From positions 1-64,000 of IMG/VR virus record IMGVR_UViG_3300019776_000252: a stretch of 64,000 nt of DNA. One strand, 5' to 3'. The stretch comes from a virus. The notes under the pieces are model-generated. The model ran no database searches. It had not been told where the DNA came from and saw nothing but the letters and a program-made list of their open reading frames with translations. This document shows positions 10,514-61,726 of this stretch, in pieces. Every line of letters begins with the position of its first letter. Position 1 is the stretch's first letter. The translations under genes were made by a program, and so were the position numbers.

Positions 10514-10539
10514 AAAAAAAGCCCACGCTAAGGTGGGCT
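10514..10539 (-). terminator. Intrinsic terminator after Nmad5
   Basis: GCCCAC/GTGGGC stem with A7 on the plus strand (U-tract on the minus transcript). Confidence 0.75.
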
Positions 10540-16496: not shown

Positions 16497-16516
16497 CCAT
16501 AGCAACCACGAAGTGG
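16497..16516 (-). promoter_or_regulatory. vRNAP hairpin promoter P4 (drives SLOG-RNAP II operon)
   Basis: Template (+) strand CCATAGCAA-CCAC-GAA-GTGG. Confidence 0.85.
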
Positions 16517-16529
16517 CAAGACACGAAAG

Positions 16530-16556
16530 AAAAAACATAACTTCCCCGAAGGGAAG
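16530..16556 (-). terminator. Terminator with UUCG loop after the micropeptide
   Basis: CTTCCC-CGAA-GGGAAG plus A-tract. Confidence 0.75.
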
Positions 16557-16563
16557 CCATATT

Positions 16564-16629
16564 TCAGTCGAAGTACACATCGAGTTCCATATCGAAGTAC
16601 TCAAACTCATCGTCAATAAACAGGAACAT
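16564..16629 (-). CDS. 21-aa acidic/aromatic early micropeptide MFLFIDDEFEYFDMELDVYFD
   Basis: ATG with GGAG SD; only plausible ORF between promoter P3 and the terminator. Confidence 0.7.
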   Translation of the reverse strand: MFLFIDDEFEYFDMELDVYFD

Positions 16630-16655
16630 AGGAGTCTCCAAGTAAGGCAGGATTG

Positions 16656-16675
16656 CCATTACAACTGCGAAGCAG
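16656..16675 (-). promoter_or_regulatory. vRNAP hairpin promoter P3
   Basis: CCATTACAA-CTGC-GAA-GCAG (contains the GCGAAGC mini-hairpin). Confidence 0.85.
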
Positions 16676-16687
16676 GATGTAGGAGAT

Positions 16688-16724
16688 AAAAAAAGATACT
16701 AGTAAACCCGAAGGTCTACTAGTA
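16688..16724 (-). terminator. Terminator with UUCG loop after the gp2-like gene
   Basis: TACTAGTA..CC-CGAA-GG..TACTAGTA plus A7. Confidence 0.75.
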
Positions 16725-16732
16725 GTGCTGGA

Positions 16733-17005
16733 TTAGTCCAGCTTAAAGCCCACTTGGGACTTCTCATCTGCCAAGCGGAAATCAGCAGTCAATGCTGCCA
16801 ATACCTTTTGGACACGAGTGGGATCAGCTTTGAGCCAATCAATCAATCCCTTCTCTGCGACATTAGTGTCACGCAAGGGAATTGCACCGAATTTCTTCGG
16901 CTTACCTGTAACGCTGTCAGGCAGATACAAGTTCATGAAAGCAGATGCTTTCCAGTTAGCATTTTGTTGAGCAGATGCTTGATTGTTTTCGATTTGAAAG
17001 GCCAT
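16733..17005 (-). CDS. Probable N4 gp2-like ssDNA-binding RNAP II activator
   Basis: Start MAFQIEN (GGAG SD); WKASAFMNLYLP...GAIPL motif; second early gene. Confidence 0.65.
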   Translation of the reverse strand: MAFQIENNQASAQQNANWKASAFMNLYLPDSVTGKPKKFGAIPLRDTNVAEKGLIDWLKADPTRVQKVLAALTADFRLADEKSQVGFKLD

Positions 17006-17052
17006 TTGAGTACTCCAATATAGATGTTGAGATGAACATACGATATGTATGT

Positions 17053-17072
17053 CCATAACAACCGCGAAGCGG
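17053..17072 (-). promoter_or_regulatory. vRNAP hairpin promoter P2
   Basis: CCATAACAA-CCGC-GAA-GCGG. Confidence 0.87.
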
Positions 17073-17242
17073 AATATAGGAGAGCGATAGAGTATCGGGA
17101 ATATATCGGTATTGGAGAGAGATATAGATGGTATATGGTTGGAGTTATAAAGTGAGTGAATACTATATGCTGAGTCGTATAGTCCTACTCTCACCAATAA
17201 CCTGAGAGTTAAATCTTTCTACTTAATAAACTGACTATCTCA

Positions 17243-17276
17243 GTGTGTAGTTGTGTGTAATGGTATTAAGTGTGTA
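17243..17276. repeat. Three GTGTGTA direct repeats
   Basis: Copies start at 17243, 17253 and 17270. Confidence 0.6.
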
Positions 17277-17279
17277 GTT

Positions 17280-17315
17280 AAAAAAAATAGGCTACTACTC
17301 CGTAGAGTAGTAACC
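17280..17315 (-). terminator. Terminator with UACG loop after the first early gene
   Basis: TACTACTC-CGTA-GAGTAGTA plus A8. Confidence 0.78.
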
Positions 17316-17322
17316 AGTGATG

Positions 17323-17514
17323 TTAGATCTTGATACCAGATGCTTCTTCTAATGCTTTCTTCTTGCTTAGACGCTCTGCTCGTGCTTCCTCTGCGAATGA
17401 TGCTGCTGTTTCTTCAGACCATTCTGCAAGGTGATTAAGAGCTTGTGCTGCTTTATTAGTAGCTCCGAAGATAGTAGCTAGTGCATCCCAGAGAGCTTGT
17501 AGTGCTTTACCCAT
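17323..17514 (-). CDS. First early gene, gp1-like amphipathic helical protein
   Basis: GAGG SD; lies between P1 and a terminator; position equals N4 gp1. Confidence 0.7.
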   Translation of the reverse strand: MGKALQALWDALATIFGATNKAAQALNHLAEWSEETAASFAEEARAERLSKKKALEEASGIKI

Positions 17515-17548
17515 GATAAACCTCGTATATATACAGTTCGACAGTGAA

Positions 17549-17568
17549 CCATAACAACCACGGAGTGG
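17549..17568 (-). promoter_or_regulatory. vRNAP hairpin promoter P1
   Basis: CCATAACAA-CCAC-GGA-GTGG. Confidence 0.87.
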
Positions 17569-17783
17569 GTATGTAGATAAGAATTCTTATAGATTTAGAC
17601 CCAGGGGGGGTGATTGATATTTTGGAAGTCCAAACTGTAAGTACTACATCAGTACCCATTTTATTTTTTCTATAAAAACCTGTGCCTATTTTTTAAGCAA
17701 AATATTCTCTATATTAATGATCACTTTTATCATCTAATAGATCATGCTACTATATAAGCCCGATAACCTAACTAAGGACTTAT

Positions 17784-22058: not shown

Positions 22059-22088
22059 AAAGAAAAGGCTCCCGAAGGAGCCTTTCTT
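22057..22088. terminator. Bidirectional terminator
   Basis: AAAGGCTCC-CGAA-GGAGCCTTT between convergent genes. Confidence 0.8.
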
Positions 22089-22102
22089 ATTGATGGCTTA
22101 GG

Positions 22103-57390: not shown

Positions 57391-57407
57391 ACCACACGGA
57401 GTGTGGT
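57391..57407 (-). promoter_or_regulatory. GGA-triloop hairpin, possible remote vRNAP-type promoter for thyX-nrdJ
   Basis: ACCACAC-GGA-GTGTGGT on the template strand; core CAC-GGA-GTG identical to P1. Confidence 0.5.
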
Positions 57408-57419
57408 TAAGGAGCTATT

Positions 57420-58883
57420 GTGGCAAATCTTGTTTGCGGTATTGGGGATTGGAATGGTCCCAAGGCTGGAGACCCTTCCAATAATGTGACCCTAGGTACT
57501 TCAACAGTACTAGGAGGTATCTATCTTAGCTGGAACTACCCTACAGTTAATCCACATGCAGTAGCACACACATTGGTTTATCGTGGCACTAATGGGACTT
57601 TTGGTTCAGCCATCAAAATAGCAGTAGCTGCAGGTAGTGGTTACTTTGACCGTATTACTGTAACTACGGATACTACTTATTACTATTGGATTCAAATAGT
57701 TTCTATTAACGGAACTACTTTAACTCCAATTGGTCCAGTTACAGGAGTTGCTATACCTCCTGCTGCCACATTATCTAATGATTTAAACCAACAGATTAAT
57801 AGCAGCCTATTATCTGAAGAGTTAAGAACTGATATTGGTAATATTGAATTGCTAGGACATTCTCTTACTCAAGAGATTAAAGACCGTCTAGCAGCTAATC
57901 TAGCTCTTGGTAATACTATTACTGGTGTAGATGGTCGAGTACATAATGCACTTGCATTTATTGAGCAGGAAACCAATCAACGTATTACTGGTGATGGTGC
58001 TCTAGCTACTCGCCTAGATGTGATGGGTGTTGGCTTTGATACTGCTATGGCAGGCATTGCTGATCAATTCATTGTCAAAGCCACAGAGACTGAGGCTCTA
58101 GCCAAGAAGATCACTACTGTAGAAGCTACCCTAAACGGTAATACTGCTACAGGCGAGATTGGTTTGAAAGCAATTGTTTCAAACAATGCCAATAGCATGA
58201 CTGACCTTAGTAATGCTCTAGGCGATGTTACTGATGACGTTACTAAAGCATCTAACGATATTAAAGGCATCAATACTAAGCTTGCTTCTGTATATACAGT
58301 CAAACTTAAAACAGTTAACCAAGCTACAGGTAAAACCTTATTTGGTGGTTTTGGTTTAGTAAATGATGGTACTACTGTAGATGCTGGTTTTAATGTTAAT
58401 AACTTCTGGATTGGTGACGTTAATAGCGTTGTTAAACCGTTTGTTGTTGGAAAAGATCCTAATACTAATGTAGATACTGTATTTATTGATACTGCAGTAA
58501 TTAAAGACCTATCGGTTACTACAGCCAAAATTGGTAAGAACTCTATTACTATTCCTACTTCAGGATATAACGTTTGTTATCTTGATATGCCTTCAGACGG
58601 CAAAGTATTTGTAGTTGCTACAGCCAATATGTATGAGAATAGTGGTTCTGATGGAGGTGGGCTTAACTCGGCTTATTCCATACAACTAGATTGCCCTACT
58701 AATGGTGAATCTGGTGGCTTTATGTGGGTACATGGAGCCAAAGCTAGGTGGTCTGTTGCCACTACCAGTTTTACATTTACTGTTCCCAAAGGTTCGCATA
58801 CCTTCCAAATTTCTTATCAGAATTGGGGTGGTAACTTCTCTTTGAGTAATGCAGCCATGATTGCTATAGCGGTACTACGATGA
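57420..58883 (+). CDS. Tail fibre/tip protein (FN3-like N-terminus, coiled coil, lambda-J/DUF1983-like segment)
   Basis: YLSWNYP...VYRG...YYYWIQ; GGFGL..DG...PFVV...VFIDTAVIKDLSVTTAKIG; GTG start with AAGGAG SD. Confidence 0.8.
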   Translation: MANLVCGIGDWNGPKAGDPSNNVTLGTSTVLGGIYLSWNYPTVNPHAVAHTLVYRGTNGTFGSAIKIAVAAGSGYFDRITVTTDTTYYYWIQIVSINGTTLTPIGPVTGVAIPPAATLSNDLNQQINSSLLSEELRTDIGNIELLGHSLTQEIKDRLAANLALGNTITGVDGRVHNALAFIEQETNQRITGDGALATRLDVMGVGFDTAMAGIADQFIVKATETEALAKKITTVEATLNGNTATGEIGLKAIVSNNANSMTDLSNALGDVTDDVTKASNDIKGINTKLASVYTVKLKTVNQATGKTLFGGFGLVNDGTTVDAGFNVNNFWIGDVNSVVKPFVVGKDPNTNVDTVFIDTAVIKDLSVTTAKIGKNSITIPTSGYNVCYLDMPSDGKVFVVATANMYENSGSDGGGLNSAYSIQLDCPTNGESGGFMWVHGAKARWSVATTSFTFTVPKGSHTFQISYQNWGGNFSLSNAAMIAIAVLR

Positions 58884-59305
58884 TTCACTATATTGAAGCA
58901 GACTCACAAGGCAAGATCTTTAACTTTGGTAGTGCTGGTGGATTCAGTGATGCTGAGTCCTTCAAGAAAGTGCTTCCAACAGCAATTATTCTTGACACTC
59001 CAGTTTCTCAGCTAAACCAATACTATTGGGATGGTAAAGCTATCCAACCAATGGGTAGACAGCCTTCCCTGGCCCATGAGTTCAACTATGAACTCAAAGC
59101 TTGGGTTTTGAATGCTCAAACCCAATGGGAATTGGTCAAATCCAAGAGAAATGACCTATTAGCTGCTACAGATTGGCGAGTTATTAAGGCTCAAGAGGAA
59201 GGAATCTCTCTAGATCCAGTTTGGATTGCTTATCGGCAAGCCTTACGAGATATTACTGAGCAACCAGATCCGTTTAAGATTGTTTGGCCTAATTCACCAA
59301 ACTAA
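58880..59305 (+). CDS. Tail fibre assembly chaperone
   Basis: KRNDLLAATDW...WIAYRQALRDITEQ...WP. Confidence 0.88.
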   Translation: MIHYIEADSQGKIFNFGSAGGFSDAESFKKVLPTAIILDTPVSQLNQYYWDGKAIQPMGRQPSLAHEFNYELKAWVLNAQTQWELVKSKRNDLLAATDWRVIKAQEEGISLDPVWIAYRQALRDITEQPDPFKIVWPNSPN

Positions 59306-59330
59306 GATTAGTTTCGGATATGATTGGGCA

Positions 59331-59555
59331 CACAATTAGCCATTAATGGGGTAATGCTCCAGTAAATAGGGTAATTTGTATCATTGGATGACTAGCAAGA
59401 GCAGCAACTTCCATAACAAGCCTAAATATCCCTTACAGAGCAATCTGTCGGGTTTTTATGTTGTTGGAGAACGATTTGCTGCATTTCCTTGCCTCTGAAG
59501 ACTCCTGCAGCTTGGTTTGTAAAGGCGTAAGCCTTGATTTCATTCATACCTAGTT
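59331..59555 (+). ncRNA. Putative structured noncoding RNA or leader
   Basis: Long hairpins with GCAA and GUAA tetraloops in a 268-bp gap lacking a convincing ORF; folded by eye. Confidence 0.5.
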
Positions 59556-59573
59556 TCTTATTAAGGAGTTCTA

Positions 59574-59999
59574 ATGTCTAAGTTTTCGAACTACACAGAA
59601 GGCAATATCATTGAAACCACTCTGCGTGGTGCTGCCTTTCCTGTACCCACTGCTGTTTATATTGCCCTGTTTACTGCAGATCCGACTGATGCCAACGTAA
59701 CTGCTGGTGAAGTACAAACCTCTGCTTGGCCTGCTTATGTCCGTAAAGATGCTGCCGTTGGTGGTGCTATCTCTACTGGCTGGACAGCCAATGCTAATGG
59801 CGTGTCTTCTAATGCCAAAGCAATTACCTTCCCTGCTAATAACGGTGCTGGTTCGGTAACTGTTGGCTATATCGGTATCTACGATGCTGCTACAGGAGGT
59901 AACTTGCTGTACCACTCTCCCTTGGTTTCGTCCAAGGTTCTTCAAGTGGGTGACGTGCTTTCCTTCGGTATTGGTGCTATCACCATCACTATCGACTAA
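59574..59999 (+). CDS. Tail fibre-associated structural protein
   Basis: FSNYTE...VYIALFTADP...IYDAATGGNLL family motif; AAGGAG SD. Confidence 0.8.
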   Translation: MSKFSNYTEGNIIETTLRGAAFPVPTAVYIALFTADPTDANVTAGEVQTSAWPAYVRKDAAVGGAISTGWTANANGVSSNAKAITFPANNGAGSVTVGYIGIYDAATGGNLLYHSPLVSSKVLQVGDVLSFGIGAITITID

Positions 60000-60011
60000 T
60001 AGGTAAGCAAG

Positions 60012-61448
60012 ATGGACCAAACTGCTGTTAACAGTAGTGGTGTAAACAGTGCCAGTAACCTATCATGGGTACTGGCTTCTGTTGCTATTACAGCCTCTGC
60101 TGCTGTTAATGCAGTTGCTGTCCGTCAATATGAGATCTTTGCATCTCCTACTGCTAATGCAGTAGTTAATGTAGTTCCAACAAATACACAACCTGGTGTT
60201 GTAAACGTTCTTGGAACTGGTGGTGTTTATCCTGATGCCTATCTACAACAAGCAGCTACTGCTAATCTAGTTGCTTCAGGTAAGGTTCAGGCTTATGTTC
60301 TTAGCTATGTAGCTGGTTCAGCTACTATCATCTGCAATTCGACTATCCAAGCTATTCCAGCAAATAGTCTAGGTCGTGCAGATATCACTGGATCTGCTGC
60401 TGTAAGCCCTACAGCAACCAGAATCCAGCCTGCTAAAGCTAATTTAACTGCTTCAGGTGCAGTAAGTAACTCTATTGCACCAGTTGTGACTCGATATGTA
60501 ACAGCTAATCTAGCTGCTGCAGGTAAAGTACGTGTTGAAACACGTATTAACGGTGTCCATGAGACATATGCAGCACCTGTAGGTTCAGCAAACATTGTTG
60601 CTGATCCTTTGGCAAATGTAATGTTTGCCTTTAATGCTGCATGTAGTGCTAATGTTTCCCCAGTAATCACATTAGAGCAAACCACTGTATCCAGTGTTTA
60701 TGCTAACTCTCTGATTGTGGTTGCTGAACCAGAAGTTACTAGGCCGTCTGTTGCATACATGTATCCCAGTTGTACTGTCTCTGCTGACGGTACTAGGATG
60801 CGACTAGCTGAATCCAGCTTTGTAGGTTCATCGACTATTACGATGGCTAAAACCTATCAAACACACTCTGCAAACGCTTCTTTGAGTGGTTTGGCTTCTG
60901 TATCTGGGGCTGGCACTGTTACTCAGTACGCTAATGTAGCTTCTGCAGCCTATGTAAATATGGCAGCAGATGCCTCTAAGACTGCTTATGCACTTTCTCA
61001 AGGTGAGAAAGGAACTGCTGTTCTAGAGGCTACTGCTTGGCTTCAAGAGTTTGGTACTGCAACACTAACTTGCAGATCGTTAGTTAATGCTGAAGCTGTT
61101 CAAACTTGCTTGGCTTATTCCAACGCAACAAACACTATTTCTGTAGTGGCTAATGCTACTAAGACTATGTTTGTAGACTCTTCAGCACAAGCTGGAGTAA
61201 CTATTGCAGCAGACGCTACCCGAGTAGTAATGCCTCAGTCTGTAATCACTAATGAAGTAACTATAGAAGCAGTAGCTCTACGTACTGCTTATGGAATAGC
61301 TGCAGTTGATGCAGCCGTAACTATTGTTGTTGATTCCATTGCAAACCCTGAATCTATTGATCCAGAGTCTAGAACTTTCTATGCTGCTCCTAGAACCACT
61401 GAGTTTGCAAGACCTTATGTTGAAACAGAATTTAGGAGAGCCGCATGA
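60012..61448 (+). CDS. Ala/Val/Thr-rich beta-repeat fibre protein
   Basis: Quasi-repeats of about 22 aa of alternating small/hydrophobic residues. Confidence 0.7.
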   Translation: MDQTAVNSSGVNSASNLSWVLASVAITASAAVNAVAVRQYEIFASPTANAVVNVVPTNTQPGVVNVLGTGGVYPDAYLQQAATANLVASGKVQAYVLSYVAGSATIICNSTIQAIPANSLGRADITGSAAVSPTATRIQPAKANLTASGAVSNSIAPVVTRYVTANLAAAGKVRVETRINGVHETYAAPVGSANIVADPLANVMFAFNAACSANVSPVITLEQTTVSSVYANSLIVVAEPEVTRPSVAYMYPSCTVSADGTRMRLAESSFVGSSTITMAKTYQTHSANASLSGLASVSGAGTVTQYANVASAAYVNMAADASKTAYALSQGEKGTAVLEATAWLQEFGTATLTCRSLVNAEAVQTCLAYSNATNTISVVANATKTMFVDSSAQAGVTIAADATRVVMPQSVITNEVTIEAVALRTAYGIAAVDAAVTIVVDSIANPESIDPESRTFYAAPRTTEFARPYVETEFRRAA

Positions 61449-61726
61449 AGTTAGGCACAGTTAAAAAGCAACCTAGGGAGAATTTCTCCTATACGGTTAC
61501 TTATGAAGATGCTCTTACTGTTGGTGACAATGTTCAAGCTGTTGAAGTAGTTTCTGTACCAACAGGTTTAGTAATTACTAACGTAGCTGTGTTTGACCCA
61601 CGAGTTAAGTTCTGGGTTGGTGGTGGTACTGATGGCTCTTCTTATAAGCTGTCAATCACAGTAACAACTGCTGATGGTCGAGTGTTCCAAGACGAGCTTA
61701 CATTTGTTATTAAGGAAGTAGTCTAA
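61445..61726 (+). CDS. Fibre-tail adaptor-like protein
   Basis: KQPRE..SY...WVGGGTDGSSYKL...TT.DGRV motif. Confidence 0.75.
   Translation: MKLGTVKKQPRENFSYTVTYEDALTVGDNVQAVEVVSVPTGLVITNVAVFDPRVKFWVGGGTDGSSYKLSITVTTADGRVFQDELTFVIKEVV

Follow-up and report, generated by a model that had tools for sequence, protein, structure and literature searches.

Results

Gene order around the gap

The DNA analyzed here (the window) is a stretch of 64,000 nucleotides that makes up positions 1 to 64,000 of a complete virus genome of 74,703 bp with direct terminal repeats. The source genome encodes a virion RNA polymerase (vRNAP; 3,396 aa, phrog_2206, E = 0), as well as an SU10-type portal, a family A DNA polymerase, a class II ribonucleotide reductase, and ThyX, a combination that identifies it as an N4-like podophage. 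A sequencing-run search placed the phage in four DNA runs of one aquatic study and listed no RNA runs containing its sequence. Contigs from those DNA runs revealed no variants or joints in 57400–61500, leaving no microdiversity to exploit. The 268-nt gap in the tail module on which the original prediction centered is genuine, bounded by the last base of the chaperone-like ORF at 59305 and the first base of the gp80-like ORF at 59574. The features of the region, in window coordinates, are as follows.

From 57420, plus strand: fibre module, in the order fibre, chaperone-like, gap, gp80-like, 478-aa gene, gp77-like adaptor, long fibre gene
57420–58883, plus strand: tail fibre gene, 487 aa (phrog_496, E = 6.6e-32; PF09327), opening the variable cassette upstream of the gap
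58880–59305, plus strand: tail-fibre assembly chaperone-like gene, 141 aa (PF16778, E = 1.5e-12; phrog_4912), whose stop codon opens the gap
59319–59324, plus strand: -10-like hexamer TATGAT, a candidate late promoter read from the sequence, with no good -35
59332–59379, plus strand: hairpin 1, a weak stem-loop by folding, straight after the putative transcription start
59384–59393, plus strand: invariant block TTGGATGACT just 5′ of the rod, 10/10 identical in the related phage L010 and unpaired in the consensus
59395–59492, plus strand: rod, 98 nt, the conserved core (fold z-score, RNAalifold consensus with L010, covariance model R1)
59401–59412, plus strand: 5′ arm core GCAGCAACTTCC, 12/12 identical in L010, predicted to pair with the start-codon region, its CUUC with GGAG
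59457–59482, plus strand: 3′ arm core TGTTGTTGGAG-AACGAT-TTGCTGC, with GGAG at 59466–59469, a 6-nt spacer, and TTG at 59476–59478; 87% identical over 23 nt in L010
59476–59553, plus strand: short ORF of 25 codons by translation, headed by the occluded start and out of frame with gp80
59522–59535, plus strand: AAGGC-GUAA-GCCUU hairpin followed by GAUUUCAUUC, weakly terminator-like and flagged by scan
59560–59565, plus strand: Shine-Dalgarno sequence AAGGAG of the gp80-like gene, read from the sequence
59574–59999, plus strand: gp80-like fibre I gene, 141 aa (PF23140, E = 8.8e-38), the first of the conserved fibre module

At the upstream border of this module, directly 5′ of the AAGGAG and GTG start of the tail fibre gene, lies a hairpin, CCACAC-GGA-GTGTGG (57391–57405), in the same stem and GRA-triloop style as four elements at 16497–17568 (CCATNNCAA followed by CCAC-GAA-GTGG and similar), which resemble N4-type vRNAP promoters.

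No RNA family had been recognized in the gap from its letters, and an Rfam 15 cmscan of 58800–60100 (E up to 10) bore this out, with four chance-level matches only. The only one within the gap, to a eukaryotic lncRNA model, scored 12.2 bits, below the gathering threshold, and a scan of L010 returned nothing better. Likewise, blastn of 58880–60020 against the phage collection gave no match. Two of the functions initially suggested, a 6S-like RNA and a virion or packaging RNA, gained no support. Both 6S RNA and the phi29 packaging RNA are rod-like or multistem noncoding RNAs of 100 to 200 nt and in that respect resemble the element described below; however, there was no Rfam match to either (RF00013 and RF00044, respectively), and the rod is about half as long as 6S RNA and lacks its large central bubble. 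To our knowledge, packaging RNA is confined to phi29-like phages, where it lies at the genome end, and we know of no use of one in N4-like phages.

Folding of the gap

The claim of one large structured noncoding RNA spanning all 268 nt was overstated, as relative to shuffles the gap as a whole scored z = −0.87 (plus strand) and −0.25 (minus strand). Its individual parts fared better. Hairpin 1 is present (−12 kcal/mol, z = −1.7), as is the AAGGC-GUAA-GCCUU hairpin (−7 kcal/mol, z = −2.4), and the irregular rod at 59395–59492 folds essentially as proposed (−29.1 kcal/mol; z = −3.0 for borders picked by eye; 1/200 shuffles as good). A closing helix, UGGAUGA/UCAUUCA, was absent from the minimum-energy fold and had no counterpart in L010. 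The consensus structure described below gives the rod a bulge-interrupted lower stem of about 16 to 20 pairs. An alternative register pairing CAGCAAC with GUUGUUG, considered as a possible switch, was rejected as 7 to 8 kcal/mol worse in both phages.

Two further arguments for an RNA held in part. Both GNRA loops (GCAA and GUAA) are present, but neither is conserved, L010 having UUUAUU and an 8-nt loop in their place. G-U pairs, taken as a mark of RNA in the plus sense, do occupy 5/56 pair cells of the consensus, but as a single sequence the minus-strand rod folds about equally well (−28.8 kcal/mol, z = −2.8).

The energy of the rod was also placed against a genome background of 14,922 100-nt windows, folded on both strands with energy regressed on G+C. 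The rod window lay 1.2 SD below the G+C expectation, within the top 11% of genome windows, and many coding windows fold better; stability alone therefore does not raise it above the genome's own coding DNA. Support for the rod comes instead from comparison with relatives.

Relatives and conservation of the rod arms

The gp80-like gene has 119 relatives in IMG/VR, and 80 viral and 15 genome loci carrying gp80 were compared. At most of these loci the preceding gene abuts gp80 with no spacer. A spacer precedes gp80 in four lineages, namely the window, L010, the L005 group, and the L033/L035/L175 group, and all four carry a homologous phrog_496 fibre together with accessory genes upstream of it. 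L010 represents a complete genome of 75,482 bp (G001) collinear with the genome of the window (G000), and the L033 group comprises complete, vRNAP-carrying genomes of about 74 kb. The element-bearing phages are all complete, vRNAP-bearing, and about 74 kb in size, with the order phrog_496 fibre cassette, spacer, gp80. Many Logan/ENA contigs encode a gp80 at 79–86% identity; the covariation comparison covered the window and L010.

Genes of the window's phage and L010 share 65 to 75% nucleotide identity, and gp80 third codon positions 52%. Between the two genomes only a handful of the 25 intergenic gaps of at least 70 nt have any syntenic similarity, among them two clear GC-rich terminators and the early-promoter region. 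Within the gap studied here, two collinear islands are conserved, TTGGATGACTnGCnnnnGCAGCAACTTCC (24/29 identical to L010, 83%) and TGTTGTTGGAGnACGnTnTGCTG (20/23, 87%), and these are the 5′ and 3′ arms of the rod. Arm identity equals that of the best stretches of gp80 (maxima 25/29 and 20/23). Sequence has not been kept in the rod apex, hairpin 1, or the spacer downstream, although each still has a hairpin in the same place; at the position of hairpin 1, L010 (2640–2760) has a much stronger hairpin of different sequence (z = −3.7).

The element is narrowly distributed, with five sequences in two forms, the rod form itself occurring in two sequences only. Exact arm patterns matched just the L010 contig in IMG/VR, and a block-B pattern added seven unrelated coding matches. 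In metagenomes the arm pattern gave 40 matches, all of the pattern letters only and in unrelated coding sequence. None of the 15 gp80 loci from a scan of genome contigs carried the element. A dispersed repeat or MITE was dismissed, as there is one copy per genome and pattern matches outside the gp80 context lie in unrelated coding sequence.

A coding explanation for the conservation was also rejected. Neither the plus-strand ORF at 59376–59498 nor the minus-strand ORF at 59422–59547 has a same-frame counterpart in L010, a 2-nt indel places the blocks in different frames in the two phages, and changes in block B fall mostly at second codon positions. A tblastx comparison of the gap with all collected loci found nothing, nor is the gap a decayed copy of the gene abutting gp80 in other lineages.

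In the L005 group (L005, L007, L008, and L011), the third lineage with a cassette, the spacer is a different one, 165 nt long (L005 2837–3000), with a perfect TATAAT, an extended -10 (TGGTACAAT), and an irregular rod of its own. It was rejected as a homologue, showing only doubtful similarity to block A and no match to covariance model R1 (see below).

Consensus structure shared with L010

L010 alone folds into the same rod (z = −2.8), and a consensus was obtained with RNAalifold on a MAFFT alignment of the two rods. On the plus strand this comprised 28 pairs at −15.7 kcal/mol. All 28 pairs (56/56 cells) are standard in both phages, with 7 changed on both sides and 2 to G-U, counts that are partly circular because the consensus derives from the same two sequences (n = 2). 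When the 3′ partners were slid by 1 to 3 columns, pairing was 33–47% and both-side changes 0–2. Column shuffling within conservation classes gave z = −3.9 for the plus strand; in a second set, only 1 of 500 shuffles reached the consensus energy and none reached 28 pairs. As a coding control, the gp80 alignment of these two phages was taken in 116-column windows, which score up to −18.85 kcal/mol, 31 pairs, and 5 both-side changes; this similar scoring weakens the energy argument. A covariance model built from the window and L010 (R1) found exactly one copy in each of the two genomes and no match in 83 other loci, including the small-RNA gap of the N4-like phage LUZ7 (L145).

The minus-strand consensus reached only −9.85 kcal/mol with 15 pairs and lost the long-range helices, which favors a plus-strand RNA, in the same orientation as the flanking genes. 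This comparison bears on the proposal that the rod acts at the DNA level, as an imperfect inverted repeat that binds a protein, takes part in replication or recombination, or provides a homology anchor for fibre-cassette exchange. Consistent with such a role, single sequences fold equally well on both strands, the element lies, in four lineages, where the variable fibre/accessory cassette meets the conserved gp80 module, and RNA pairing leaves the invariant TTGGATGACT unaccounted for. However, the 5/56 G-U cells would be A-C mismatches in a cruciform, the long helices survive only in the plus-strand consensus, no repeat occurs elsewhere in the genome, and arms 60 to 90 nt apart around a diverged interior that keeps its stem shape are untypical of operators. 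A DNA element is accordingly considered quite improbable.

A translation start buried in the rod

In both the rod fold and the consensus, CUUC of the 5′ arm pairs with GGAG of the 3′ arm, and the GCAGCAA/UUGCUGC helix contains TTG at 59476–59478, so that the rod covers both a Shine-Dalgarno sequence and a start codon. The equivalent in L010 is GGAG-N6-ATG. In the predicted folds of both phages, then, a ribosome-binding site and start lie within a leader stem, as in ribosome-binding site (RBS)-occluding leaders. The GGAG-N6-start aligns column for column (MAFFT) as TTG in the window, ATG in L010, and the ATG of gp80 itself in L033, L035, and L175.

In the latter lineage a 135-nt spacer ends in a nearly perfect hairpin of 15 to 20 bp (L033 2920–3006, also in L035 and L175; −35.6 kcal/mol, z = −5.2) that locks the gp80 Shine-Dalgarno sequence and ends 2 to 3 nt before the ATG. 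Its 3′ arm, TTGTTGCTGGAG-ATCTCT-ATG, is the gp80 RBS and start codon. The L033-lineage hairpin is a sharper case of the same device. CAGCAAC of the 5′ arm is invariant in 5/5 related sequences, and a pattern of both motifs matched 12 IMG/VR contigs, 4 of them these phages upstream of gp80 and 8 in unrelated coding sequence. The pairing register differs, however, with the anti-Shine-Dalgarno segment 5′ of CAGCAAC in L033 and 3′ of it in the window, which leaves the stems themselves short of proven homologues. Separately, among the three samples of the L033-type spacer, its conservation exceeds that of the upstream gene.

In the window the occluded start heads a short ORF rather than gp80; the counterpart in L010 has 23 codons and an unrelated peptide. 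Two readings of the short ORF are an upstream ORF and a fossil of the start that gp80 once used. Occlusion of gp80's own Shine-Dalgarno sequence was no greater than in shuffled leaders (P(paired) 0.83 in the window and 0.89 in L010). The window gp80 is 71 to 83% identical to that of several other lineages (among L002–L014), including L013 (a record 70% complete, with no vRNAP match), as compared to only 46 to 49% for the L033-type N4-like gp80. This pattern of identity suggests that the fibre I module has been exchanged across phage groups. From it we infer that the hairpin and its RBS would be ancestral to the N4-like lineage and were probably stranded when recombination replaced gp80.

A further step would be to regard the rod, Shine-Dalgarno sequence, and start as a functionless remnant, a fossil gp80 start stranded by that replacement. 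The non-conserved 23- to 25-codon ORF out of frame with gp80, the split in gp80 identity just described, and a folding energy ordinary for the genome would all fit a remnant. Substitutions in the stems nonetheless keep pairing, and the arms are 83 to 87% identical in a setting where hairpin 1, the rod apex, the spacer downstream, and the bulk of intergenic DNA elsewhere can no longer be aligned. A neutral fossil should have decayed alongside its surroundings, and we consider a remnant unlikely.

Promoter- and terminator-like signals

The -10-like hexamer of the original prediction is indeed found at 59319–59324, 65 nt before the invariant block TTGGATGACT. L010 has TATCAT (2680–2685) 66 nt before its copy of the block, and there a TTATCA -35 at 17-nt spacing was flagged by scan. 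Host polymerase uses sigma-70-type promoters late in N4-like phages (PMC9163698), and TATGAT/TATCAT at a matching position suggests a late promoter of this type. Three other promoter readings were rejected. The gap shows no N4-type vRNAP hairpin promoter, that is, a short GC stem and GRA triloop after a CCATNNCAA spacer as at the four early sites; CCATAACAA at 59411, resembling an early-promoter spacer, is a coincidence, with no stem-triloop after it and no copy in L010; and a shared promoter-like motif, GGRTATSATWGG, is no commoner than chance.

At the other end of the rod, L010 also has a terminator-like hairpin before gp80 (2934–2946). GC-rich hairpins with an A-run, stem, and T-run at 10517–10539 and 22060–22091 are conserved in L010 with compensatory changes (CCCAC/GTGGG vs CCTAC/GTAGG). 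Judged by sequence, these two are the phage's clear bidirectional intrinsic terminators and provide a yardstick for other candidates.

Together, these signals would delimit a discrete late small RNA gene of ~200 nt, starting after TATGAT (59319) and stopping at 59522–59535, whose product would act in trans or be processed. The like spacing of the -10 hexamer in L010, with its flagged -35/-10 pair, and the terminator-like hairpins between rod and gp80 in both phages are consistent with such a gene. A precedent is found in phage LUZ7, also N4-like, where an unusually large intergenic gap (orf69–orf70) yields sRNA1–3; these late transcripts are abundant, shorter than 250 nt, and devoid of coding potential, and they have a start of their own and alternative terminators (PMC9163698). 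However, the LUZ7 gap lies by replication genes, not in a fibre module, and neither sequence comparison nor model R1 finds a match there. The window also lacks a -35, and the putative terminators are 5-bp stems with poor U-tracts, as opposed to the GC-rich 8- to 10-bp stems with A and T runs of the phage's clear terminators. Finally, the conserved part holds an RBS homologous to that of a real gene, which indicates an mRNA feature. A discrete small RNA thus appears improbable.

A related arrangement is that of StxS, reported as a small RNA produced by early termination of a phage late transcript (PMC7547250). StxS resembles the gap in having a promoter-proximal structured leader of a late operon able to give both a short RNA and a read-through messenger; it differs in needing a strong terminator and Q antitermination, whereas the terminator-like hairpin here is weak and has no known antiterminator to go with it.

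Termination could instead occur within the rod, its apex (CCC..ACAGA-GCAA-UCUGU.GGG, then UUUUUAUGUU) stopping host RNA polymerase as an intrinsic terminator or attenuator of the fibre/chaperone cassette. A U-rich run does follow the apex, and the L005-group spacer has a clear hairpin and T-run 25 nt before gp80. Against this, the apex hairpin is weak (−9.1 kcal/mol, z = −0.7), was unflagged by scan, and falls short of an intrinsic terminator, for which a GC-rich stem running straight into a U-tract is expected; it is also unlike the phage's clear terminators; in L010 the apex is a 7-bp, AU-rich stem lacking a proper U-tract; and it is the arms, not the apex, that are conserved. We regard a terminator as very unlikely.

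Discussion

A putative leader structure of the fibre operon

Among the roles first offered for the gap, a regulatory leader for the fibre genes fits best with the observations, as the rod is conserved at its position, lies on the gene strand, and carries a Shine-Dalgarno sequence and start codon in its 3′ arm. Because the rod folds over an RBS and start codon, it most likely regulates the fibre-operon messenger RNA. We tentatively favor the reading, to which we give nearly an even chance, that the gap has at its core a cis-acting RNA structure forming a leader or intercistronic part of the plus-strand fibre-operon messenger.

Transcripts would enter from the upstream fibre/chaperone cassette, from the putative late sigma-70-like promoter at about 59319, or from both, with hairpin 1 at the 5′ end of a promoter-initiated transcript. 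The arms GCAGCAACUUCC and UGUUGUUGGAG...UUGCUGC would then pair into the roughly 98-nt irregular rod, burying the Shine-Dalgarno GGAG and the start codon 6 nt on. In the sister N4-like lineage the presumably homologous stem would bury gp80's own RBS; in the window's phage and L010 the buried site would head the 23- to 25-codon ORF, about 100 to 160 nt upstream of what may be a newer gp80 start. By this arrangement the rod may set output of fibre I and the downstream fibre proteins relative to the upstream cassette. It might do so by blocking initiation until the stem is opened or until RNase III or another double-strand-specific nuclease cuts it, by stabilizing processed ends, or by both together. 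Within this leader model, the sequence, its fold and conservation, and its alignment with a genuine RBS are established, and the transcription start, processing, and effect on translation are the presumptive parts.

Such a device is reminiscent of known RBS-occluding leader hairpins, translational operators that are opened or cut to permit translation, with RNase III-dependent activation exemplified by the lambda N leader and E. coli adhE. Like these, the rod is predicted to pair an anti-Shine-Dalgarno CUUC with GGAG and to cover the start, and it lies on the coding strand directly upstream of an operon; in the L033 lineage it is gp80's own RBS that is buried. In contrast, the buried start here heads a short non-conserved ORF rather than gp80. 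A second parallel is offered by phage T7 mRNAs, in which RNase III processing sites of about 50 to 60 nt lie between cistrons (R0.3, R1.1, and others). Like the rod, these are irregular stem-loops with internal loops that lie in intergenic regions of polycistronic podophage messages, have lower stems spanning about two helical turns, and separate segments needing different expression. RNase III sites call for some 20 bp or more of mostly uninterrupted duplex, against the 16 to 20 bulge-interrupted pairs of the rod's lower stem. The rod, however, is 98 nt long and has no sequence relation to the T7 sites, and late transcription in N4-like phages uses the host polymerase.

A more specific version, in which the rod and short ORF would form a translational relay particular to these N4-like phages, or the leader would be released as a late LUZ7-like small RNA, is speculative and in our estimate improbable. 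In the relay, once the rod was opened or cut, ribosomes could load on the 25-codon ORF, and those crossing an anti-Shine-Dalgarno segment within it (59500–59506) would free the gp80 RBS. Fibre I output would then depend on an RNA switch at the edge of an exchangeable receptor-binding cassette.

If functional, the rod would be a conserved site at which N4-like phages, whose late regulation is barely mapped, control tail-fibre synthesis post-transcriptionally. Its location at the site where receptor-binding cassettes are swapped may explain how a new cassette is balanced with the resident fibre module. The case would also illustrate an RBS hairpin surviving gene replacement and being reused. Given the narrow distribution and a familiar class of mRNA structure, the gain is incremental.

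Other noncoding DNA in the two genomes

Outside the fibre module, noncoding islands conserved between the window's genome and L010 lie in the early-promoter region at 17229–17263, 17604–17641, and 17745–17774; examples from this region are GGGGGGnTG...TATTTTGGA and TGCnACTATAT...CCCGATAA. The gap before gp80 in L010 is 700 nt long, and its first 340 nt (2300–2640), which have no ORF of note or Rfam match, close with a terminator-like CTACC-GGA-GGTAG hairpin and T-run.
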